From an uncultured archaeon (GTDB taxonomy: Archaea; Asgardarchaeota; Heimdallarchaeia; Heimdallarchaeales; Heimdallarchaeaceae), in contig CAZJUB010000087.1 in the NCBI GenBank assembly GCA_964549075.1, positions 1 to 11,024 of the forward strand: DNA of 11,024 nt, given 5' to 3'. Position numbers and translations under genes: made by a program. This document shows positions 1-11,024 of this stretch, one piece after another (the stretch's first letter is position 1; every line of letters starts with the position of its first letter). The notes below the pieces were generated by a model. The model searched no databases. It was not told the origin of the DNA and saw only the letters and a list, made by a program, of their open reading frames with translations.

Positions 1-409
1 CAATAGCTTTCTAAATAAAAGATTCTACCGGAACATCAGCTCCAATATCAAATACTTCAAATCCCTCTGAAGATAGCATTGAAGCGACTAATGTTTTTCC
101 TATGTCGTGAATATCTCCCTCTATAGTACCTATGACAACTTTACCAAGAAACCTCTCTTCTTTACCTTCCTGAAGCAGTGGGTGAATTATGGTCATAGCA
201 GCTTTCATCGCTTCAGCACTACGCATAAGTTCTGGTAGAAAGAATTCTCCTTCTTCAAACAAGTCACCTGCTTCTCGTATAGCTAAAGAAAATGAGTCGA
301 TAGCTTCATTGACTTCCATTTTTCCATTAACTACTTTTCTCGCTAAATTTTCTGCTAACTCGATATTCCCATCTAAAATTGCTTTTTTACATTCATCACT
401 GAAAGTCAT
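1..409 (-). CDS. Corrinoid (B12-binding) protein, MtaC/MttC-like; in-frame TAG at 11-13, frame continues off the window edge (readthrough or pseudogene)
   Basis: Four-helix cap (FFLPELMRSAEAMK) followed by the B12 motif GTIEGDIHDIGKTLV...GFEVFDIGADVP. AGGAG upstream of the ATG. The domain is incomplete at the TAG, and the frame reads ESFI*KAI, matching the usual 'F(I/V)EKA' continuation. Confidence 0.88.
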
Positions 410-474
410 TTATATCTCCTACAACGATATTTTACAATTAGTGAGAAAGATTAATTGTTAATTAGACTTTCCCC

Positions 475-858
475 TTATTCATGGCAAATTTTTATTGTCC
501 AATCGATTAACGGTTGAAGTGCTTTTGAAAGTTCCTCCCCTTTAGTTGAAAGAGAATATTCAACTTTTGGAGGGATTTCTGCGTGAATATCTCTGATGAG
601 TAAACCTTCTTTGTGTAATTCAGTTAAACGAGCTGAAAGAGTTGCATCACTAATTTTATCCCTCTTCCAACCTTTATGAAGTAATTCTCGAAGCTCATTA
701 TACCTTACTTTCTTACCATCACTTAGAACATTAATTAGTTGGATACTCCATTTTTTACCTACAAGATTCAAAATTTTTTGTGCTGGAATGAAACATGGAT
801 ATCCATTTTTCTCATGAGAACATTTGACGATTGAAGGGTACTCGTTTATTTTACTCAC
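475..858 (-). CDS. HxlR/MarR-DUF24 winged-helix transcriptional regulator
   Basis: LVGKKWSIQLI, VRYNEL, ISDATLSARLTEL...GLLIR...EIPPKVEYSLSTKGEEL..L..W are HxlR hallmarks. GTG start; two N-terminal Cys. Confidence 0.93.
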   Translation of the reverse strand: MSKINEYPSIVKCSHEKNGYPCFIPAQKILNLVGKKWSIQLINVLSDGKKVRYNELRELLHKGWKRDKISDATLSARLTELHKEGLLIRDIHAEIPPKVEYSLSTKGEELSKALQPLIDWTIKICHE

Positions 859-904
859 ATTACTTCACTTCTTCAAAGTTACTTAAAATTTATTTAGAAA
901 GACC

Positions 905-957
905 TTATATATAAATACTTTCATATCTAAAGTAATAACACTTTGATAACTAAAGTG
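905..957 (+). promoter_or_regulatory. TATA box plus two tandem palindromic operators (YACTTT-N7-AAAGTR) between the divergent hxlR-like gene and a micro-ORF
   Basis: TTATATA at 905-911; TACTTTcatatctAAAGTA at 916-934; CACTTTgataactAAAGTG at 939-957. Confidence 0.7.
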
Positions 958-968
958 AGGTAGTGACA

Positions 969-1121
969 ATGAACAAAGATTGTAAAGGAAAACACCATAA
1001 CTGTGGAGAATTCAAAGGAAATGAAACTAAAGAGGAAAAACTCCAACATTTAACAGATTGTAAAGCAAAACTACAAGATCAGATAAAGAAAATCGATAAA
1101 GCTATTGCTGAATTAGAATAA
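969..1121 (+). CDS. 50-aa Cys/His-containing coiled-coil micro-protein (resembles DUF5320-type proteins)
   Basis: Manual translation MNKDCKGKHHNCGEFKGNETKEEKLQHLTDCKAKLQDQIKKIDKAIAELE. GAGGT/GTGA SD-like motif upstream; TAA TAG followed by a T-run. Not in the ORF track. Confidence 0.75.
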   Translation: MNKDCKGKHHNCGEFKGNETKEEKLQHLTDCKAKLQDQIKKIDKAIAELE

Positions 1122-1128
1122 TAGTTTT

Positions 1129-1581
1129 TCATTCTTTGTTTGGAAAATACTTGCATAATTCCCAAAATGGAGGAACTAATTCTAAATCTACCAAGATATC
1201 TACAAGACAGAAAGCACCCCATTAATTAATGACCTTACCTTCTTGATCGACTTCAAGGATTGCCATACCGTCAACTTCTGTCTCTTTATTGGTCGGTTCA
1301 AATCCCCAGGCACTACCTCCATGTCGCATTTTTGCAGTATATCTTACCCAAACCTTTGTCTTATCAGCAATTAGATCTTCTACTGAATATCTTAGATCAT
1401 GAAAAGCTGATCTAAAATATTTTATCTCATGAATAACAAGTTCTGGTCCTTGTTTAGGTATTCCAATATAATCTGGTTTGAAGTCAGGATGAATTAATTG
1501 ATAAGCTAAGTCAAAATCTGGTCTACTCCACATCTCCTCAAACCAACGTCTTCCAATCTCCTTGTTTCTTTCTACTGACAT
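1129..1581 (-). CDS. SnoaL-like ester cyclase (NTF2-like) protein with in-frame TAA at 1222-1224 (readthrough or pseudogene)
   Basis: MSVERNKEIGRRWFEEMW...FRSAFHDLRYSVEDLIADKTKVWVRYT...H.G...GFEPTNK. After GKVIN* the frame continues WGAFCLVDILVDLELVPPFWELCKYFPNKE to TGA at 1129-1131, completing the expected last strand and helix. Confidence 0.85.
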
Positions 1582-1615
1582 AGATAGAAAGTTCTTGGGA
1601 CTTTAATAATTCTTT

Positions 1616-2581
1616 CTAGAAAAGAAGTAAACTTAATACTCGCTGTTTTGCTTCCAAATATTTGTCCTCTTGATTAGATTCACTGAAAAATCCTGCCGCT
1701 GACATTCCTATATATATTTTATAGCATAATAGTCTCTTCTCATAGTTTTCAAAATCTAATAATTCTGAATCTTTAAATTTCTCACAATATAATTTTGAGT
1801 AATTATCTTCATCTCTAAAACCCCAGAAATCTAACCAAGCTATGTCATAAACAAAGTCTCCGTAGATAGAGTGTTCCCAATCAAAAACTGCTGTTATTTT
1901 GCCTTCTGTATCTGCTAAAACATTATCAAAGCCAAAATCACCATGAACTAGATAACGTTTAAAGGAACAAAATTTGATTAATTCTTGTATTTTTTTTACC
2001 CCTTCATTATATAACTCAAGCTCAAAAATTCCAGAAGAAAATCTTTCATTTGTATAGATTTTTTCTTTTTCCAACCTCTCTAAAATGTACTCTTGCATGG
2101 TTTTGTATTTGCCTTTTTTCCATATTTCCCAGTATCCATAACCTCGTGTATCTGAAATTTTAGTTGTATGGATTAAATATAGCATCTCCACAAGAGATTC
2201 ATCTACTACCTTCAGCTTATCTTCTGGAAAGAGGTGAACAAAAGAGCCATTGATGTTTTCCACTATACTGTAAATAAATTTGTTTCTTTTATATTCTTTA
2301 AAGATACCCTGTTCAATTGTTTTTGGAATGGGAATCTTAGGATTTCTTTTTTTCAAAATTTCATAAATAAAAATTTCTTTCACAAAAGGATTTGTTTTTC
2401 TAAACCTTTTCTTGACTTTTCTGATTTTGATGACATATTTTTGATCTTTGTTCTCAAAAGAGAAAGCTTGAGATATTTCTCCTCCTTTAAGAATTTCAAT
2501 GTTTTTAATGCCTGAACTGAATTTTTGAGTTAGAAATTCTTCTATCTCAGATATACTAATTCTAGTTTTCAGTAAAGACAC
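1616..2581 (-). CDS. Aminoglycoside phosphotransferase (APH/choline kinase-like) family protein
   Basis: GGEISQAF loop, YVIKI lysine, Brenner motif LVHGDFGFDNV, AVFDWE..IYGD..YDIA. Start more likely the GTG at 2581, with a TATA-like TTATAT about 25 nt upstream, than the ATG at 2698. Confidence 0.88.
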   Translation of the reverse strand: MSLLKTRISISEIEEFLTQKFSSGIKNIEILKGGEISQAFSFENKDQKYVIKIRKVKKRFRKTNPFVKEIFIYEILKKRNPKIPIPKTIEQGIFKEYKRNKFIYSIVENINGSFVHLFPEDKLKVVDESLVEMLYLIHTTKISDTRGYGYWEIWKKGKYKTMQEYILERLEKEKIYTNERFSSGIFELELYNEGVKKIQELIKFCSFKRYLVHGDFGFDNVLADTEGKITAVFDWEHSIYGDFVYDIAWLDFWGFRDEDNYSKLYCEKFKDSELLDFENYEKRLLCYKIYIGMSAAGFFSESNQEDKYLEAKQRVLSLLLF

Positions 2582-2657
2582 AAATCTTGAGTAAACAGCT
2601 GTTGATATAACTCTTTTGCTCTCGATATTGGAATGCAATCTGTTTGGTATGTATAGC

Positions 2658-2684
2658 AAAGAGAAAGAACTGTTCTTACTCTTT
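2658..2684. terminator. Inverted repeat, possible terminator or operator
   Basis: AAAGAG-A-AAGAAC-T-GTTCTT-A-CTCTTT, just downstream of the MBL gene stop. Confidence 0.35.
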
Positions 2685-2691
2685 TTTCTTT

Positions 2692-3582
2692 CTAGCATTC
2701 AAATGTTAAAGTATCTCCCACTCGAAACTTCTTTACGATTTCTTTACCAAAATACGCTGTCATGAAATCAATAGCTTTCAATCCTGTACAATGACTAAAG
2801 TAAAGTTGAGGTTTGTTGTATTTTGTTTCAAGTTGATTCGCAACATATCTGAGATCTTCTTCATCAGTAAAAGCGACTAGATGAGTTCCTCCTATAATCT
2901 TTTTGATTTCTTTATCAGGATAAATCTCTTTAGCTCGGGCACAAATATTAAGAACACCTGCGTGACCACATCCTAATATAAGAACCAAACCATCTTTTGT
3001 TTTAAGAATTAGTGATAGATCATCTAGAAGATCATCGTGAACAAATTTACCTTCAAGTTCAATTGTTAAGCTATCTATTTTGCAAGGTTTTTCTTTCCAT
3101 TCATTTATTTCACCTGTCGTGGTTAGTATAGGTGTAATTTGGTAAGGCTCAATAATTTTAATTATCTCAAGTTTTTCCATAATCTCTTGCGATAATGTAG
3201 GAAAACCAAGATTGTACCATCTATATTTGAGATAAGTTGTTAATCTGCGAAAAGGATTTTTTACCCTTCTTCTGGTAAATACATTGGGATGACCAATTAA
3301 CTTTAAGGTTGGTGCATCATCCCTACTTTGCATTAAAGCTTCGATTCCAAATGTGTGATCCCAATGTCCATGACTAAAAATAACCATATCAATGCTCTTC
3401 GGATTAATTCCTAAAATTTGCATGTTATTAAGTAGAATTATTCCTTGATCTCCTGTATCAAATAAGATTCTCTTATTGTCTATTTCTATCAAATAACATA
3501 AACCATCAGAAGAAATAAACTCTCTATCTGGTCGAACATATTTATCAACAATGTTGGTGAGTTTAACTTCCATTAAAATCAT
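2692..3582 (-). CDS. MBL-fold metallo-hydrolase, COG1237 (MJ0301-like dihydropterin-RFA-P synthase family)
   Basis: ILFDTG, SHGHWDH, DDLSLI, GCGHAG, IIGGTHL, SHCTG motifs. Start may be the ATG at 3573. Confidence 0.9.
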   Translation of the reverse strand: MILMEVKLTNIVDKYVRPDREFISSDGLCYLIEIDNKRILFDTGDQGIILLNNMQILGINPKSIDMVIFSHGHWDHTFGIEALMQSRDDAPTLKLIGHPNVFTRRRVKNPFRRLTTYLKYRWYNLGFPTLSQEIMEKLEIIKIIEPYQITPILTTTGEINEWKEKPCKIDSLTIELEGKFVHDDLLDDLSLILKTKDGLVLILGCGHAGVLNICARAKEIYPDKEIKKIIGGTHLVAFTDEEDLRYVANQLETKYNKPQLYFSHCTGLKAIDFMTAYFGKEIVKKFRVGDTLTFEC

Positions 3583-3698
3583 GATAAGCTTTTTTTTAAC
3601 ATTATTAATTTTATCCTCATGAAAAAATCGATAGATACTTATATTTTTAACTAAGTTTTTTTTGTGTTTATTACTATTCAGAATTTTAGTGATGAAAT

Positions 3699-4604
3699 AT
3701 GAATAAGCGAGATATTATATCAATAATTGGTGTCATTATTGCAATTGCTGCTGGTACAGGACTTGCATTCGCTGGAAGCTATAAAGGAGTTTTAATCTTT
3801 GGTGGTCTTCCGTTATACGCTTTCTGTATAATAATTGCATTTGCAATGCAATGGCTTGCTTTTATACCTGCATATATTTTTAAAACAGAAAAATTCTATG
3901 ATTTAACAGGTGCTGTAACCTATACAACAGTAATTTTATTAGCTGTGTTCCTAGGACCTAATCTCAATCCTACTATTAGTATTCGATCTATTATTATACT
4001 TATACTAGTTGCGGTTTGGGCTTTTAGACTGGGTTTCTTCTTGTTTAGAAGAGTGTTAAAAGTAGGTGAAGATAAACGATTTGAAGAAATTAAAAAATCC
4101 TTCACACGCTTTCTATTAACATGGACTCTCCAAGGACTTTGGGTCAGTTTTACACTAGCTGCAGCTTTGGCTGCTGTAACTGTGATACAACCAACAACTT
4201 ATGGAGCTTATGATTTGATATTTCTGATTCTAGGTGGTATAATCTGGTTGTTTGGATTTAGCTTTGAAGTTATCGCAGACTATCAGAAGAATAAATTTAG
4301 GGCAAATACTGAAAATAAGGGTAAATTTATCACAGATGGACTATGGTCTATTTCTAGACATCCTAATTACTTCGGTGAAATAGTGATTTGGATTGGTATA
4401 GCTCTCATAGCCTTACCAACGCTTATTGATTGGAGATTTGTTACTTTGATCTCTCCCATTTTTGTAACTTTACTTCTAACATTACTAAGTGGAATACCCA
4501 TGTTAGAGAAACGAGCAGATGAAAAGTGGGGTGGTCAAGAAGATTATGAAGAGTATAAGAAAAACACTCCTGTTTTAATACCATGGCTGCGTTTCAAGAA
4601 ATAG
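3699..4604 (+). CDS. DUF1295 (steroid 5-alpha-reductase-like) membrane protein
   Basis: TEKFYDLTG, WAFRLG.FLF.R....GEDKRF, EVIADYQK, GLWSISRHPNYFGE, SGIPMLE, YEEYKKNTP. T-rich terminator-like tract follows. Confidence 0.93.
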   Translation: MNKRDIISIIGVIIAIAAGTGLAFAGSYKGVLIFGGLPLYAFCIIIAFAMQWLAFIPAYIFKTEKFYDLTGAVTYTTVILLAVFLGPNLNPTISIRSIIILILVAVWAFRLGFFLFRRVLKVGEDKRFEEIKKSFTRFLLTWTLQGLWVSFTLAAALAAVTVIQPTTYGAYDLIFLILGGIIWLFGFSFEVIADYQKNKFRANTENKGKFITDGLWSISRHPNYFGEIVIWIGIALIALPTLIDWRFVTLISPIFVTLLLTLLSGIPMLEKRADEKWGGQEDYEEYKKNTPVLIPWLRFKK

Positions 4605-4798
4605 CACCTTCTCCTTTCTTTTTTTATTTGCAACACAGCAGATTTATTATACCTTTGGAGAAAGATTCTGGTCTAATTGGGAAAACAATCCTCAATCTAA
4701 TGATGGATGGATACAAACAGGACACTACGAATAAAGAATAATCTAATAGGAAATATCATATCCTAATATTTTTATTCGAAAGATAATATGGTGAGAAT

Positions 4799-4978
4799 AT
4801 GAAGTTTTTTCGTAAACTCTGGACATTATTAAAAGAATCTTTTGCTCTCGAGACATTATGGAAATAGAAGAACCGAGAGAAAATTCATAAAATCATTCGA
4901 TTAATCCTTGTAGGTTTTCTAAATATAGTCATCTTTGTTGGAGTTTATTTACTTGTTTATCATTTTTATTATAATTAA
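4799..4978 (+). CDS. Putative 59-codon single-TM micro-protein with in-frame TAG at 4865-4867
   Basis: GGTGA SD upstream; MKFFRKLWTLLKESFALETLWK*KNREKIHKIIRLILVGFLNIVIFVGVYLLVYHFYYN-TAA. Confidence 0.5.
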
Positions 4979-5036
4979 GGTGTTTCTTCTGTAAAATAAA
5001 GTATCAAAAAAATGAGAGATTTGGAAGGTTAAAGAA

Positions 5037-5780
5037 ATGAAAAGATTTTTCCTTTATGATAGAATAAGTAAGACTGATCTAATTAGTGGAATAGTTGTTT
5101 TAGTTGGCACCTTCTTTCAGTTTTTTCTTTATATTACAAAATATATTGAATACTATTACATTTCATCTATCATTGTTGGATTAGGTTTCAGTATTTTTGG
5201 AATCAATCATCTATTTGAGAAAAATACAGATACTAATCAGAACAAAAGGATTGTACGAAATAAATTAGGATTAAATAAATTCTTTATTTTCTTTAGCATT
5301 AGTTCAATAATCGTTGGATTAAGTATGATTCTAGGTGATAGTTTTACAAGTTTTGGATATATACGTGATATTTACTATTTAGTAATAATAGGACGTCTCT
5401 TTAGAACTCTATATCTTTGTATATTACTAATGATATGTATGTTACTTATTTTTCTAACTTATATATATAAGAAGAGGTTTGAAATTCAATTAATTCCATT
5501 GATATCAGAAATAATTTTTGTTGTGATTCTTATTCTTATGTTATACATGGATATAGAAAGTATGTTTTATTACCAATGCTATAGATTATTCGAGCTTCCA
5601 AGCTGTTTTCCATCTGGTTTCTACTTCCTTACAAGTTCTCTCTATGTAATTTTAAGCGGATTATTTGTTAAATTAGTTCAAATTTTTTCAAAAGAAATCT
5701 CTCCAATAAAGACTTCTGTTCAAGATGAAAATGAAAACTTAAGTGAAGCTCAGGTACCAAAACAGAATGAAGGGAAGTGA
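5037..5780 (+). CDS. Hypothetical multi-pass membrane protein (about 6 TM)
   Basis: 247-aa ORF with repeated hydrophobic segments and a polar C-terminal tail. No family recognised. Confidence 0.75.
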   Translation: MKRFFLYDRISKTDLISGIVVLVGTFFQFFLYITKYIEYYYISSIIVGLGFSIFGINHLFEKNTDTNQNKRIVRNKLGLNKFFIFFSISSIIVGLSMILGDSFTSFGYIRDIYYLVIIGRLFRTLYLCILLMICMLLIFLTYIYKKRFEIQLIPLISEIIFVVILILMLYMDIESMFYYQCYRLFELPSCFPSGFYFLTSSLYVILSGLFVKLVQIFSKEISPIKTSVQDENENLSEAQVPKQNEGK

Positions 5781-5893
5781 ATCATCATATTTATAACACT
5801 GCATTAATTATAATTCATCTCTTTTTGTATTAACTACATTTAGTAAGCGTAAAGGTTATATTTCATAAATTTTATCTTTTTTTTAGTGATAAT

Positions 5894-6070
5894 ATGGTAG
5901 TTCAAAGACCAGATGCATTTATCTGCAATAACTGTGGACATCGTTTTAATAATGAAGAGAAAAAAACCTTAAAAGAGGAAGTAGATGGGATATTTACTAC
6001 AAAAACAGTATGCCCTAAGTGTTTATCTCCTGATATCAGAACTACAATAACAGGTCATAGGGACGAGTAA
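5894..6070 (+). CDS. 58-aa zinc-ribbon micro-protein
   Basis: MVVQRPDAFICNNCGHRFNNEEKKTLKEEVDGIFTTKTVCPKCLSPDIRTTITGHRDE: CxxC...CPxC. Confidence 0.8.
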   Translation: MVVQRPDAFICNNCGHRFNNEEKKTLKEEVDGIFTTKTVCPKCLSPDIRTTITGHRDE

Positions 6071-6146
6071 CAATCGTTTTTTTGTATTACTGGGGTAGTC
6101 TCTTTATCATACTTACTCTATAAAAAACTTTGACTATCTTTATTTC

Positions 6147-6320
6147 ATGCAACCTGAGAATCTAGTTGATGAGATGAACCGTATCCTAGTAAAAATGGAT
6201 AAAGAATTACATAGTTTGAATAGAGAGTTGGATAAAATACTGAAGAAATACCCAAAATATATGGAAGAGGATGAAATTCGACTCAAATATGCAATGTATA
6301 AATACAATCATGGTAAATAG
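6147..6320 (+). CDS. Small helical hypothetical protein (57 aa to TAG; 87 codons to TAA at 6408-6410 if read through)
   Basis: MQPENLVDEMNRILVKMDKELHSLNRELDKILKKYPKYMEEDEIRLKYAMYKYNHGK*IAILSSRAKLRDFRGIIDLINSIFAEESF. Confidence 0.6.
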   Translation: MQPENLVDEMNRILVKMDKELHSLNRELDKILKKYPKYMEEDEIRLKYAMYKYNHGK

Positions 6321-6454
6321 ATCGCTATTCTATCCTCTAGGGCAAAATTAAGGGATTTTAGGGGAATAATCGACTTAATAAACTCTATATTTGCTGAGGA
6401 ATCATTTTAAATGTCATATCTATTTTATAATAAGAAAAAGAAGGATTGCTGAAG

Positions 6455-7483
6455 ATGAAAGAAATCAGAATAAATTTTCCTGCAGAAAAACTGGAAATTG
6501 TACAAGAATTGTTTGAAAGGTTAGGGTATGATTTCACTCTCTCTATATTCGAAAAAACTGTTACAATGACAATTGATGTTAAGAATGAACATACTTCAAC
6601 AATCCTGGAAGAATTGAAAGGTATAGGTGTTGGAACAATTTTTGGAAAAATAATTGTCTCTCCTGTAGCTTTAGAGATTACTTCAAAGAAGACGGAACCA
6701 ATTGTTAAAGATAGAGGAATTAGTATCGATGAAATGATTTCCAATATTAAACATCTCTCTCTAATAAATACAACTTTCATCGGATTAATTATATTAGCTG
6801 GAATTTTAGCTTCATTTGGGTTAATTTATGATAACGTTGTTATTATAATTGCTAGCATGATTATTGCTCCACTTTTGGGACCTATTGCTCTTGCAGTTAT
6901 TGGTACTATGACACCAAAGAATATCTACACAAAACGCGCAATAACAGCTGAAGTAGTAGGCTTATTTTTAATTATTCTAATTGGATTTTTAGTGGGTATT
7001 ATCTATAGATTCACTGCTCCTGAACAAATCATAAATGAAGGTGAAATTATGAGCCAACAGATTTCGTCAAGAATTAAACCTACCATAGGTGATATTGCTT
7101 TCGCGATTGCTAGTGGTTTAGCAGCAGGAGTATTTATTATCAGAGGTGAAAGTACTTCTATTGTAGGAGTTGCAGTAGCAGCGTCACTGTGTCCTCCAGC
7201 AGCTAATGTAGGAGTATTATTAGCAACAACAGGTACAATTGGAGAAGCGTTTGGTTCACTAATCTTGTTAGTGCTAAATGTTTTAGCTATTTATGCATCT
7301 TGCGCTCTTATCTTTTGGACATCACAGTCCTTTGTTAGAGGTGGAACAGTCTCTACTAGACAATTTAAAAGAATTAGTAGAAAATATATTATCCAAATAG
7401 CGCTGACCTTTTTCGTTTTAGCAACCATCATCACACTAATAGTGTTAGATAATATTTACAATTTTATTCAAATCAAAGTATGA
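6455..7483 (+). CDS. TIGR00341/DUF389 family membrane protein with N-terminal soluble domain
   Basis: ASFGLIYDNVVIIIASMIIAPLLGPI, AIASGLAAG, VGVAVAASLCPPA, NVLAI motifs. Start at ATG 6455 or TTG 6446. Confidence 0.9.
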   Translation: MKEIRINFPAEKLEIVQELFERLGYDFTLSIFEKTVTMTIDVKNEHTSTILEELKGIGVGTIFGKIIVSPVALEITSKKTEPIVKDRGISIDEMISNIKHLSLINTTFIGLIILAGILASFGLIYDNVVIIIASMIIAPLLGPIALAVIGTMTPKNIYTKRAITAEVVGLFLIILIGFLVGIIYRFTAPEQIINEGEIMSQQISSRIKPTIGDIAFAIASGLAAGVFIIRGESTSIVGVAVAASLCPPAANVGVLLATTGTIGEAFGSLILLVLNVLAIYASCALIFWTSQSFVRGGTVSTRQFKRISRKYIIQIALTFFVLATIITLIVLDNIYNFIQIKV

Positions 7484-7509
7484 ACCAGATGAAATAGTAC
7501 ATAAATTAG

Positions 7510-7686
7510 TTATCTAAAGTGTTCAATCATTGATTTCATAACCATTTTTACAGCATATTGAGCTTCCTCATTTAAGTCCTTAAAACCTTTACCGCAACTT
7601 GGGCAAGGTTCATAACCTTCAGGATCGCTTTTACTAAATTTAAATCCACAATGGAAGCAATATACTTTGTTTGGTAATTCATTCAT
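7510..7686 (-). CDS. 58-aa CPxCG-type zinc-finger micro-protein
   Basis: MNELPNKVYCFHCGFKFSKSDPEGYEPCPSCGKGFKDLNEEAQYAVKMVMKSMIEHFR. Confidence 0.8.
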   Translation of the reverse strand: MNELPNKVYCFHCGFKFSKSDPEGYEPCPSCGKGFKDLNEEAQYAVKMVMKSMIEHFR

Positions 7687-7800
7687 TTAAATCAAAAATA
7701 TGTAAGGATTTAATCCAAATAAACCTTTTTGAGAAAATCATATATTGGTAAAGTATTCAAGTCTAGACTGTATTGTTTCCTTTAGAATCTTTTCTCTTTC

Positions 7801-8841
7801 TTATCTCCAATACCTTGGATCCCCTATTCCTAAATACCAGTAACAATAACCTCCTACGGGATATTTGTTTATAGCATCCTCTTTTTTTTGTGTTGATATA
7901 TAATCTTGAAAAACTGCAAACCAAGTTACATCGCTTTCATCCTTGTAAATAAAAAATAATTCCTTTGAATCCGAGTATCTGTCTGTTTTTACTCCATAAG
8001 AATCCACTAGGTTTTTGAAATAGTAGTATCCGCCTGATAAAGCTGCTTCACCATTATCTGGCCAATTATAGCCATATAGAGGAATACCACAGTAGATTTT
8101 TTCGTAAGGAATTGTTTTTGTTGCATAATTCAAGACATTTCTTATCCAGCTTATTGGAGATATCTGTCCTGGATTACTATATGAGTAATCATATGTCATT
8201 ATCATCACATAATCACAAATTTCCCCAATTGTTGTATAATCAAAAGCTCCTCCCCATCCTATTGTCCAATCAGCTGATTTTGCTGGTACATCTATTGATA
8301 TGATATATTCAGATCCTAACGAATCTTTAACATCTCTCAGAAATTCATTAAATACTGCTCTATCTCTTGCTGGAACTCCTTCAAAATCTAGGTTTATTCC
8401 CGTACAATTGTAAAGATTAAGCAGAAAAATAGCTGATTCAATAAAATTACTTACACTTGTTTCATTATTAATTATTATAGATATAAGTTCTGAACTAAAA
8501 AATTCATCATAATTTGATACTAAGGGATGAACTTTAATACCTTTACTCCTACAAAAATCAAATACTTCATTTGGTGAAACATCTAAATTCCAATATTCAT
8601 CAGTCATCGTTCCATTTGGCAAAACTCTCCACCATGAAGGTGAAATCATATCGATTTCATCTGCGGAATCTATCAATCTTGCGTATGATGCATTGTTCCA
8701 AGTACTGAACCAAAAAAAATTCTTCTTGATTGGATACTCCACATTGAAATAAGGACTGAAATAGAAGTATAAACCTATACCCGTACCTATCATGCCTAGA
8801 ATGATTATTCCTGCGATTAGTCTGATATAAATAGATTTCAC
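7801..8841 (-). CDS. Membrane-anchored glycoside hydrolase family 18 protein (YaaH/YdhD/chitinase-like)
   Basis: N-terminal TM helix; ISPSW, GINLDFE catalytic motif, IMTYDY, PGQISPISW, GIPLYGYNW, WYLGIGD. Confidence 0.9.
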   Translation of the reverse strand: MKSIYIRLIAGIIILGMIGTGIGLYFYFSPYFNVEYPIKKNFFWFSTWNNASYARLIDSADEIDMISPSWWRVLPNGTMTDEYWNLDVSPNEVFDFCRSKGIKVHPLVSNYDEFFSSELISIIINNETSVSNFIESAIFLLNLYNCTGINLDFEGVPARDRAVFNEFLRDVKDSLGSEYIISIDVPAKSADWTIGWGGAFDYTTIGEICDYVMIMTYDYSYSNPGQISPISWIRNVLNYATKTIPYEKIYCGIPLYGYNWPDNGEAALSGGYYYFKNLVDSYGVKTDRYSDSKELFFIYKDESDVTWFAVFQDYISTQKKEDAINKYPVGGYCYWYLGIGDPRYWR

Positions 8842-8925
8842 AATCTATATTTCCTCTTCCCTTTTTGAAGTTAATCCCTCAATATACTAAAGATTTATTA
8901 TTCTCTCTGTGATGAAAAACTTACT

Positions 8926-10851
8926 ATGAATTCAGTAGAAAAAATGTGCGAAAAGTATACTGTAGAAAATGCTATAGAACACGGGAAAGCAGCAGTAGGT
9001 CCTGTTATGGGGCTTGTGTTTAAAGCTGATCCTGAATTGAGAAAAGATGCAAAAAACATCAAGAAAATCGTCGAAAAAAAAGTTGACTATATCAATTCAT
9101 TAAAAGCTGAAGAAATACAACAACTCGCACAGAAACAATTCCCAGAACTACTTCGAGAAAGAGAAGAAGAAGTACAGGAGGAAGCTGATTTCATAAGAGA
9201 GATTATAGAAGAACATAATCGAACCGGTAGATTTGGAGGAAAAGTGCATACTCGCTTCCCTCCTGAACCGAATGGTCTGCTACACATAGGTCACGCTTAT
9301 TCTATAGATCGTCAATACTATCTAACTATGGAGTATAAAGGAAAATTCAATCTAAGATTCGATGACACAAATCCAATAACTGAAGAAGAGGAATTTGTCG
9401 ACGAAATAATTAGAGATGTCAAGTGGTTAGGTGCTGATTTTGAAGATAGACTTTTCTTTGCTTCTGATTATTTTGAGCAGTTTTACGAATACGCGGTCCA
9501 GCTAGTTAAGAAAGGCTTAGCTTATGTTGACGATTCAACAGTTGAAGAAATTCGTGAAATGAGAGGAACAATAAATGAACCTGGAAAAGAAAGTCCATTT
9601 AGGAATCGATCAATTGAAGAAAACTTGAATCTATTCACAAAGATGAGAAATGGAGAATTTGCGGATGGAGAGAAAGTTCTTCGAGCGAAAATAGATATGG
9701 CACATCCTAATATGCTAATGAGAGACCCGATTGTATATAGAATTCTTCACGCTAAACATCATAGATCAGGAGATAAGTGGTGTATATATCCGATGTACGA
9801 CTGGGCACATGGATTGGAAGATTCGATTGAAGGTATAACACAATCAATTTGTACCCTTGAATTCGAAGTTCATAGACCTTTATATGACTGGTATATTGAC
9901 CAATTAGAGGATGAAGATGGTAATCCGATACACCATTCGCAGCAGATAGAGTTTGCTAGAATGAACCTTACTTATATGGTTGCAAGTAAAAGAAAACTTC
10001 GAATGCATGTAGAGGAAGGTTATGTTACTGGATGGGATGATCCAAGATTGTTAACTATTGCTGGAATGAGAAGAAGAGGAATCACACCTGAAGCTATCCG
10101 AAATTTTGCTATAGCTATACCTTTCACCAAACGAGACAAAATTATTGATATCTCTACCTTTGAATATTATGTCAGAGAAGATTTGGATAAACGATGTCCT
10201 AGAGTAATGAGTGTTATTGATCCTCTCAAAGTGGTTATAACTAATTATCCAGAGGATTTAACTGATGAGTTCGAAATAGCCAATCATCCTATGAATAAAG
10301 AAATGGGTACTAGAAAAGTCAAATTCACTAAGAATCTTTACATTGAAAAAGAGGATTTTATGGAAAATCCACCTGAGGATTATTACAGACTTTCAGTAGG
10401 AAAGGAAGTAAGATTGAAATATGCTTATTTCATAAAATGTGAAAAAATTGTAAAGGATGAGAAGACTGGAGTGATAAAAGAAATCCATTGTACCTATGAT
10501 CCAGAAACCAAAGGAGGAGAATCTCCTGATGGAAGAAAAGTACAAGGTACTATTCATTGGATATCAGCTGATAATGCTTTGGAAGTTGAAGTTAGACAAT
10601 ATGACAGGCTTTATACAAAAGAAAATCCAATGGAAGCGGAAGAAGGTAAAGATTTCAGAGATTATATCAATCCAGATTCAATTAAAATTATGAAATCTTA
10701 TGCAGAACCTTTTCTCAAAAATAAGGAACGTGGATCAAGATTCCAGTTCGAAAGAGAAGGATATTATGTAATCGATATAGTAGATTCTACCAAAGAAAAT
10801 CCTATATTTAACAGAATCATTACACTAAGAGATTCTTGGGGAAAGAAATAG
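8926..10851 (+). CDS. glnS: Glutamine--tRNA ligase with an N-terminal archaeal-GluRS-like helical domain
   Basis: From about aa 88 it is collinear with bacterial GlnRS: FIREII, VHTRFPPEPNGLLHIGH, LRFDDTNP, RAKIDM, WCIYPMYDWAH, SICTLEF, QIEFAR, SKRKL, GWDDPR, EVRLKYAY, GTIHWIS, FQFEREGY, FNRIITLRDSW. Confidence 0.96.
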   Translation: MNSVEKMCEKYTVENAIEHGKAAVGPVMGLVFKADPELRKDAKNIKKIVEKKVDYINSLKAEEIQQLAQKQFPELLREREEEVQEEADFIREIIEEHNRTGRFGGKVHTRFPPEPNGLLHIGHAYSIDRQYYLTMEYKGKFNLRFDDTNPITEEEEFVDEIIRDVKWLGADFEDRLFFASDYFEQFYEYAVQLVKKGLAYVDDSTVEEIREMRGTINEPGKESPFRNRSIEENLNLFTKMRNGEFADGEKVLRAKIDMAHPNMLMRDPIVYRILHAKHHRSGDKWCIYPMYDWAHGLEDSIEGITQSICTLEFEVHRPLYDWYIDQLEDEDGNPIHHSQQIEFARMNLTYMVASKRKLRMHVEEGYVTGWDDPRLLTIAGMRRRGITPEAIRNFAIAIPFTKRDKIIDISTFEYYVREDLDKRCPRVMSVIDPLKVVITNYPEDLTDEFEIANHPMNKEMGTRKVKFTKNLYIEKEDFMENPPEDYYRLSVGKEVRLKYAYFIKCEKIVKDEKTGVIKEIHCTYDPETKGGESPDGRKVQGTIHWISADNALEVEVRQYDRLYTKENPMEAEEGKDFRDYINPDSIKIMKSYAEPFLKNKERGSRFQFEREGYYVIDIVDSTKENPIFNRIITLRDSWGKK

Positions 10852-10919: not shown

Positions 10920-11024
10920 AGTCCCATGGTGTAGCCTGGAAACATTCCAGACTTTGAAGAAAGTCATCCAGATGCCTTTTGAAGTCATCTGGCGCCGGGA
11001 GTTCAAATCTCCCTGGGACTACCA
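10920..11024 (+). tRNA. tRNA-Gln (UUG) with a 29-nt intron at 37/38 (10958-10986) and encoded CCA
   Basis: Acceptor AGTCCCA/TGGGACT, D stem GTGT/ACAT, anticodon stem CCAGA/TCTGG with loop CT-TTG-A|A, T arm GGGAG-TTCAAAT-CTCCC, then ACCA. Bulge-helix-bulge at the intron ends; 76 nt when spliced. Confidence 0.95.

Follow-up and report, generated by a model that had tools for sequence, protein, structure and literature searches.

The window analysed here, the whole 11,024 nt of contig CAZJUB010000087.1 from an uncultured archaeon of the Heimdallarchaeaceae (assembly of 3.23 Mb in 217 contigs, 89.7% complete), carries a glnS gene whose predicted product combines the body of a bacterial-type glutaminyl-tRNA synthetase (GlnRS) with an N-terminal domain of the archaeal glutamyl-tRNA synthetase (GluRS) type. 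The gene is a single open reading frame (ORF) with an ATG start and encodes 641 amino acids (aa); AlphaFold2 modelled the full-length enzyme with a mean pLDDT of 92.2. From its sequence, the best explanation is that it encodes a working GlnRS of the archaeon. Our preferred reading, to which we give a probability of roughly 0.6, is that a bacterial-type glnS entered Heimdallarchaeia and gained, by fusion, the N-terminal domain of an archaeal GluRS, which aids the binding of a tRNA-Gln with A73 as discriminator base. The body would most likely have come from a bacterium, acquired horizontally by an ancestor of two Heimdallarchaeia families, and a GluRS domain of ~76 residues with a flexible acidic linker would then have been fused ahead of the intact bacterial N-terminus; this order of events, transfer and then fusion, is one that we infer.

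The original prediction, made from the letters of this stretch, had proposed such a chimera, and separate searches with the two parts of the protein bore it out. Residues 81-640 matched GlnRS models, with NF011291 scoring best (806.7 bits, cut-off 681; model positions 7-558 of 769) and the glnS equivalog TIGR00440 reaching 676.1 bits over a cut-off of 425.8 (aa 107-640 on model positions 1-524 of 524), while residues 1-87 matched only the two archaeal GluRS models of NCBIfam (NF003169, E = 5e-16, aa 2-84 on model positions 3-86; TIGR00463, E = 6.4e-10). The bacterial GlnRS alignment begins at DFIREII (D88, nt 9187), as had been predicted. Both the TIGR00440 score and the class I signatures and domain order (HIGH, KMSKS-type loop, Rossmann fold and two beta-barrels) identify the body as GlnRS. 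In Pfam, the catalytic domain PF00749 at residues 106-421 is followed by the PF03950/PF20974 beta-barrels at 424-525 and 542-617, and nothing scored above threshold in residues 1-105. The residues around TRFPPEPNG and CIYPMYD, which we take to be those of the glutamine pocket, are conserved. As a whole, the protein stays below both archaeal GluRS cut-offs (377.1 against 401.75 bits for TIGR00463 and 364.3 against 516 for NF003169), the alignments nevertheless beginning at residue 2-5. The closest non-Asgard proteins are bacterial GlnRS from Anaerolineales, Dehalococcoidia and Anaerohalosphaeraceae with 60-64% identity, a range also seen between bacterial phyla; they cover 86-88% of the protein and thus lack the N-terminal domain. 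Pseudomonas aeruginosa GlnRS (5BNZ) aligned end to end with aa 84-640 at 651 bits, the E. coli and P. aeruginosa enzymes together spanning 639-651 bits. That the enzyme has drifted to another specificity, for example as an enzyme that puts glutamate on tRNA-Gln alone to supply GatDE, in the manner of bacterial GluRS2, or as a non-translational paralogue, is very improbable: the equivalog score exceeds its cut-off by 250 bits, the 61-64% identity with bacterial GlnRS extends over the full length, and the dN/dS of the core within the genus is 0.03-0.11, to be set against the GatD/GatE homologues retained by the host and a variant KMSKS-region loop, MVASKRK, in place of the V[ML]SKRK of most relatives.

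The N-terminal domain is predicted to form four helices (residues 2-19, 24-34, 36-57 and 61-71; pLDDT 84-95 in the AlphaFold2 model), and the linker, whose sequence and length differ between orthologues, is flexible or disordered as judged from the same model. Residues 1-87 aligned with residues 3-80 of the M. thermautotrophicus GluRS (3AII) at E = 4.7e-10. An exhaustive phmmer search of 1.84 billion representatives with aa 1-95 returned 91 proteins at E ≤ 0.001, 36 of which were taken into a Pfam scan; in 22 of 24 proteins longer than 300 aa (21 of them ≥500 aa) the domain lies at about residues 1-90 and is followed by a class Ic catalytic domain. The two exceptions are P0199, a repeat protein and probably a spurious match, and P0207, which has a zinc ribbon ahead of the domain and the domain itself at 221-298. 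In the 21 matches of ≥500 aa, the cores are 26-37% identical to that of this enzyme and are thus GluRS-type. Outside this GlnRS, homologues of the domain were seen only at the N-termini of class Ic synthetases having such cores; the named carriers of the domain are GluRS of Nitrososphaerota, Thermoprotei, Sulfolobales and Borrarchaeum. A word-indexed homologue search with residues 1-95 found 16 proteins, all close orthologues, and the source names of the orthologues are Heimdallarchaeaceae, Heimdallarchaeota or Asgard group. Within the genus, dN/dS for residues 1-76 was 0.09-0.54 (mostly 0.1-0.25), and the fusion is conserved and evolves under purifying selection in two Heimdallarchaeia families. 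Pairwise dS between species of the genus was lower in 8926-9153 (about 0.1-1.15) than in 9187-10848 (about 0.27-2.5, often saturated); short length, constraint at the 5' end and exchange between genomes are candidate causes.

A true start near nt 9187, which the original prediction had named as fatal to the chimera, was ruled out, since that site offers no codon for initiation and conservation of the reading frame reaches back to residue 1. The last ATG upstream of 9187 is M28 (nt 9007), inside helix 2; no start codon lies between M28 and D88, and codons 59-88 hold no in-frame ATG, GTG or TTG. The comparison covered 400 genomes of the Asgard phylum, 83 of them in the class Heimdallarchaeia, with families within the sample labelled f1-f7; in 17 of 17 loci from f1 and f7 an uninterrupted frame and its homology extend from residue 1 onward, and ~60 cluster representatives of 60-99% identity share the N-terminus. 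An annotation artefact, in which the true start is internal and the 87 N-terminal codons are an untranslated leader, can hardly be credited. It would agree with nine NCBI-named representatives (P0016, P0022, P0024, P0035, P0054, P0056, P0060, P0062 and P0075) that start at Met codons within or after the domain, and with P0102, which likewise begins internally. Against this, relatives of the shorter calls have full-length frames, such as a 650-aa member of the cluster of P0102, and the domain combines the lack of internal starts with homology from residue 1, a dN/dS below 1 and a confidently predicted fold. P0102 had been considered as a domain-less member of the domain-bearing clade and was rejected; it is probably a start miscall, the N-terminus of the 650-aa member grouping with the GlnRS domains.

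Phylogenetic analysis of the core gives solid support for its membership in a tight cluster of bacterial-type GlnRS that includes the Asgard clades and stands apart from eukaryote-like giant-virus GlnRS and from GluRS. In tree 2 (83 rows, LG+C20 PMSF, eukaryote-like giant-virus GlnRS included) the bacterial-type cluster has an SH-aLRT of 96, the domain-bearing clade (100) nesting beside Ignavibacteriota (SH-aLRT 92) and the f5 clade (100) elsewhere (94); in tree 3 (45 rows, mixture model) the cluster is separated from giant-virus eukaryote-like GlnRS at 93 and the two Asgard clades come together at 47. A transfer from a bacterium to Heimdallarchaeia is the direction that these trees favour, though they do not prove it. 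The original prediction had held that the bacterial look of the core favours domestication over a relic of GlnRS origin; membership in the bacterial-type cluster agrees with this, and the clade falls inside or beside the bacteria depending on the tree.

On contig C5 the host encodes a separate archaeal GluRS (TIGR00463, 416.5 bits), which is 30% identical to the GlnRS over its whole length including the N-terminus. The GlnRS domain is 23-38% identical to the N-termini of own-genus GluRS, 36-41%, 36-44% and 33-41% to those of f4, f7 and f5, respectively, and 39-46% to those of the best non-Asgard GluRS (Nitrososphaerota, Thermoprotei and Sulfolobales). In a quick, poorly resolved domain tree of 85 columns, the N-termini of the resident f1 GluRS come together (SH-aLRT 97) to the exclusion of the GlnRS domains, which group loosely with non-Heimdall GluRS. 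Based on the identities and this tree, the domain is an archaeal GluRS domain and no recent copy of the resident gltX, and a recent copy of the resident 5' end was rejected as its source. Of the predicted domestication of a bacterial glnS by recombination with the host gltX 5' end, acquisition followed by fusion is thus best supported and the resident donor falls away; the suggested comparison with the host GluRS found the resident gene no closer than the GluRS of the three non-Asgard groups. The own-genus GluRS (L002:1465-3207 (+), L099-L108, L117 and L118) have HPHIGQ in place of the HIGH signature, and their N-terminal motif is divergent (NAYKYGSA; NAxxHxGKA is usual in archaeal GluRS), the copy borne by GlnRS being canonical (NAIEHGKA).

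A glnS gene over the cut-off was identified in 41 of the 400 Asgard-phylum genomes, all of them members of f1, f5 and f7, three families belonging to a single class. It was found in 20 of 30 f1 genomes in addition to that of the window, 12 of 22 in f5 and 10 of 12 in f7 at E ≤ 1e-100; the sister families f2-f4 of the same order (16 genomes) and the other ~330 Asgard genomes had none. The f1 and f7 enzymes carry the domain (17 of 17 loci examined), and f5 enzymes are without it, with in-frame stops 42-65 codons before RFPPEPNG. The domain-bearing gene is also present in G054 and G055, each assembled as a single contig; it is therefore a chromosomal gene and no product of faulty binning. In a wider survey of GlnRS frames from the best 80 genome_contigs loci, 79 of which were read, the domain was absent from 77 (76 bacterial or unclassified, one labelled Thermoplasmata), and both carriers were labelled Heimdallarchaeota. 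Two apparent non-Asgard carriers, L031 ('Planctomycetaceae', tblastn residues 4-640) and L209 (a viral contig, 6-641), were rejected as spurious long matches, because their frames start 33-50 aa before RFPPEPNG without the domain. The frame labelled Thermoplasmata archaeon (L056, CAYHBA010000008.1, a 113-kb contig) is a domain-less bacterial-type GlnRS that falls with Planctomycetota in all three trees and may reflect either a transfer of its own or faulty binning.

The tRNA-Gln(UUG) gene at the end of the window starts 69 nt past the glnS stop codon and has A1:U72, A73 and an encoded CCA; it was found by intron-aware aragorn and not reported by an intron-blind tRNA finder or by Rfam at gathering threshold. 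The tRNA-Gln(CUG) gene of the same genome opens contig C58 (4-77). In f1 and f7, tRNA-Gln(UUG) lies 3' of glnS on the same strand and tRNA-Gln(CUG) 0.5-13 kb off on the same contig, and in f5 an intron-less CUG and UUG pair is usually found just beyond the glnS 3' end in convergent orientation (linkage loci L132, L135, L137, L138, L140, L144, L145, L148 and L255). All tRNA-Gln but one (G1) have A1:U72. At the discriminator position, counted per genome, A73 was read in 11 of 11 UUG genes of f1 and four of four of f7, as well as in 3/3 of f4, which has no GlnRS; the CUG genes of f1 have A73 in 12 of 21. In family f5 (loci L119-L146 and L260-L284), genomes with glnS had G73 on CUG in 12/12 and on UUG in 8/8 of the genomes read, one of the UUG calls after correction of a 1-nt aragorn offset, and f5 genomes without glnS have A73 (2/2) in intron-containing genes. 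The G73 genes share the host acceptor stem AGCCCCG and are thus host-derived. One glnS-bearing f5 genome, G066, also keeps an intron-containing A73 tRNA-Gln copy with an abnormal C33, which is possibly decaying. The Heimdallarchaeia loci look like two natural solutions to the tRNA-Gln identity barrier: a protein-side solution in f1 and f7, where a GluRS N-terminal domain would have been grafted onto the incoming enzyme and A73 kept, and a tRNA-side solution in f5, where no graft was made and the discriminator would have switched to G73 on intron-less tRNA-Gln genes beside glnS.

In the mechanism that we propose, the body would carry out the chemistry and read the anticodon as in bacterial GlnRS, and the tethered domain would act in cis as an additional tRNA-Gln-binding module. 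By analogy with the C-terminal Yqey domain of Deinococcus radiodurans GlnRS, described in the accessible text of PMC1865053 as a cis-acting tRNA-Gln affinity enhancer, and with the N-terminal domain of eukaryotic GlnRS, which has the same effect for its enzyme, the domain would raise the affinity for archaeal tRNA-Gln (A1:U72, A73), which is without the G73 preferred by bacterial GlnRS. The gene lies beside the genes of its tRNA-Gln substrates, and the direct route would co-exist with the retained GatD/GatE homologues. GatE is present in 78 of the 83 genomes of the class, with scores in f1 of only 375-410 bits against 560-640 bits in f2-f4, and GatB is absent from the genome of the window. Family f7 has two GatE-like genes (about 640 and 320-437 bits), and f5 has one type or the other.

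Several results weigh against bacterial transfer followed by fusion to a tRNA-binding domain. In the trees, eukaryotic GlnRS is represented by giant-virus eukaryote-like proxies only; the branching at the base of the bacterial-type cluster shifts with model and sampling, and neither placement, inside or beside the bacteria, is rejected. In tree 1 (107 rows, LG+G4, GluRS-only root) the domain-bearing clade branches off as the sister group of the 83 bacterial-type rows taken together (91/93), and in tree 3 it stands in a basal polytomy with the f5 clade. The Ignavibacteriota nesting of tree 2 is not starred, and in the 45-row set joining the domain-bearing clade to Ignavibacteriota is 10.75 lnL units worse and not rejected (p-AU 0.254). 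The identities and the domain tree single out no donor GluRS for the domain. Bacterial-type GlnRS persists without the domain in the Asgard family f5, nine of 21 f1 genomes have G73 on the CUG isoacceptor, and the A73/G73 pattern rests on three lineages. As regards the charging route, either one may serve a given tRNA-Gln, adjacent gatE and gatD homologues over the cut-off lying in the genome of the window (C3:61210-64454). The label 'YqeY-like' is weakly supported: none of 68 domain sequences matched Pfam GatB_Yqey/YqeY (PF02637, PF09424) at E ≤ 1, and Foldseek with the domain model against the PDB gave nothing at E ≤ 0.001. Of the similarity to archaeal GluRS or YqeY domains that the chimera had been said to require, the GluRS part was thus found and the YqeY part was not matched in Pfam. 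The top 18 of 48,161 chains in VIA-align include human GlnRS 119-182 (4YE6, Z 6.8), Bacillus subtilis YqeY 97-148 (1NG6, Z 5.7; rmsd 1.9, 47 aligned) and yeast Gln4 119-184 (3TL4, Z 5.5), with 20-22% identity for 4YE6 and 3TL4; these matches are suggestive of a shared fold, at Z values that the tool calls common for helical domains.

The basal positions in trees 1 and 3 also fit a different origin, in which GlnRS arose from an archaeal-type GluRS with its N-terminal domain in the Asgard/eukaryote stem, Heimdallarchaeia keeping this layout and the bacterial and f5 forms having lost the domain. The domain precedes the Rossmann fold as in every archaeal GluRS examined, its divergence from GluRS N-termini (23-46% identity) about equals that of the core from GluRS cores (26-37%), it is no recent copy of a resident gene, and the fold matches include the second subdomain of the eukaryotic GlnRS N-terminal domain; the carriers moreover belong to Heimdallarchaeia, a class discussed as close to eukaryotes in the accessible text of two Nature papers. 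We nevertheless regard such a relic as unlikely. Human and yeast GlnRS gave 378 and 370 bits for this enzyme (P0001) against 498 and 440 for the bacterial P0076, so that it is no intermediate towards eukaryotic GlnRS; the long Asgard stems (0.24-0.26, against 0.02-0.1 for bacterial internal branches) fit acceleration after transfer; and the clade comes to lie within bacteria when more rows and outgroups of eukaryote-like GlnRS are used. A relic would also require loss in the ~330 other sampled Asgard genomes, including sister families of the same order, and the complete bacterial N-terminal helix (DFIRxII) is kept behind the linker. That GlnRS was invented in the Asgard lineage ancestral to eukaryotes, bacterial GlnRS being its descendant minus the domain and the eukaryotic N-terminal domain an elaborated homologue, strikes us as decidedly unlikely. 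Transfer and fusion may also have taken place with a domain that does not bind tRNA, serving instead as a protein-protein adaptor that docks to GatDE, GluRS or another translation factor, or as a regulatory or stability module, which we consider doubtful. The persistence of GatD/GatE homologues alongside GlnRS and the missing YqeY/GatB-tail membership would suit an adaptor, as would the archaeal GluRS N-terminal domain itself, which according to the accessible text of PMC2978374 (Nureki et al.) is disordered in 3AII and which is without a demonstrated function; there it is named 'YQEY domain'. A role in tRNA binding is favoured by tRNA-Gln being the common substrate of both domain-bearing enzymes, archaeal non-discriminating GluRS and this GlnRS, by a flexible tether resembling that of the Deinococcus Yqey domain, whose tRNA affinity was measured (PMC1865053, in its accessible text), and by a discriminator base that tracks presence or absence of the domain.

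Compared with known systems, the enzyme resembles D. radiodurans GlnRS (2HZ7; NF011291) in having a bacterial-type body and a flexibly linked helical appendage related to the indirect Gln-tRNA pathway, and differs in that the appendage is N-terminal, of ~76 aa (against ~215 aa) and of the archaeal GluRS type. No Deinococcus-type C-terminal Yqey domain was found in the protein, whose chain stops at residue 641, immediately past the GlnRS body. As the NF011291 match stops at model position 558 of 769, this domain is absent, and the NCBI product name on the orthologues, 'glutamine--tRNA ligase/YqeY domain fusion protein', taken from the Deinococcus model, is therefore right only accidentally. Like eukaryotic GlnRS (yeast Gln4, 3TL4; human QARS, 4YE6), it places an appendage, here a putative tRNA-binding one, before the GlnRS core; the eukaryotic domain, in contrast, has ~200 aa in two subdomains, and here the core is bacterial-type and neither the protein nor the 68 domain sequences matched Pfam tRNA_synt_1c_R1/R2 at E ≤ 1. 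With archaeal non-discriminating GluRS (3AII) it shares the homologous domain in the same place before the Rossmann fold and, presumably, tRNA-Gln as a substrate; it differs in the core (26-37% identity), in its whole-protein scores below both GluRS cut-offs and in that the host encodes GluRS on a separate contig. HIGH, the N-terminal helix and both beta-barrels are as in bacterial GlnRS (E. coli 1GTS/1QTQ, P. aeruginosa 5BNZ), from which it differs by the domain and linker added at its N-terminus, by belonging to an archaeon and by substrate tRNAs with A1:U72/A73; bacterial tRNA-Gln has U1:A72 and G73 (in part after the accessible text of PMC9499178).

The same 2022 review (PMC9499178) states, in its accessible text, that all archaea lack GlnRS, which it puts down to a tRNA-Gln identity barrier that arose in co-evolution with GatDE. 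Among the accessible parts of other sources, a preprint mentions GlnRS adjoining cox genes in Hodarchaeales and Kariarchaeaceae, and a review asserts GlnRS transfer to Archaea. In the literature searched, with subscription journals and preprint supplements outside its scope, the fusion was not described and archaeal or Heimdall GlnRS appeared only in passing. These loci make the barrier hypothesis directly testable with four proteins and a few transcripts, and for the archaeal GluRS N-terminal domain, disordered in the sole crystal structure, they suggest a function that can be put to the test for the first time. Engineers of cross-domain or orthogonal GlnRS/tRNA pairs may also find in the domain a module ready for use. 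For databases, the results correct a product name borrowed from the Deinococcus model and the starts of at least nine NCBI-named representatives called inside the domain.

Table 1. Coordinates of glnS, its parts and the flanking features in the window.
Feature	Position (nt)	Strand	Basis or remark
Spacer, A+T-rich, 84 nt; presumed promoter region	8842..8925	+	Between divergent GH18 gene (start 8841, minus strand) and glnS
glnS, 641-aa glutaminyl-tRNA synthetase with appended N-terminal domain	8926..10851	+	Stop codon included
N-terminal domain, aa 1-76, archaeal-GluRS N-terminal ('YqeY-like') type	8926..9153	+	Homology, predicted fold, dN/dS
Acidic linker, aa 77-87 (REREEEVQEEA)	9154..9186	+	pLDDT <50 for residues 78-86
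Complete bacterial-type GlnRS body, aa 88-641: N-terminal helix DFIREII, Rossmann catalytic domain, two beta-barrel anticodon-binding domains	9187..10848	+	
HIGH signature, H120-I-G-H123	9283..9294	+	Columns invariant or nearly so in two alignments
tRNA-Gln(UUG) gene with 29-nt intron after position 38; runs to contig end	10920..11024	+	aragorn intron mode; exons 10920-10958 and 10987-11024

The neighbouring genes at 11-8841 are unrelated to translation and encode a B12-binding corrinoid protein (cut by the window start), an HxlR regulator, a SnoaL-like protein, an APH/fructosamine-kinase-like kinase, a metallo-beta-lactamase-fold protein, a DUF1295 membrane protein, a 247-aa membrane ORF without family, a DUF389 protein and a GH18 glycosidase. 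The G+C content of glnS (0.34-0.365) is slightly higher than that of its surroundings (0.26-0.33). Outside the window, a tRNA-like element was observed at L145:1165-1239 (-), in L135, L141 and L236-L238, and at L245:1327-1400 (+); its anticodon loop is read by aragorn as 6 nt long ('ta') in genus g1, and in G052 it is called as tRNA-Stop(UUA) with an A1/A72 mismatch. The element may be a decayed tRNA or a suppressor-like tRNA. Contigs of giant-virus size (L171-L228) encode two kinds of GlnRS, a short bacterial-like one with an MNFIEE start and a eukaryote-like one, and some of the latter (L217-L219) bear an N-terminal extension of ~190 aa.

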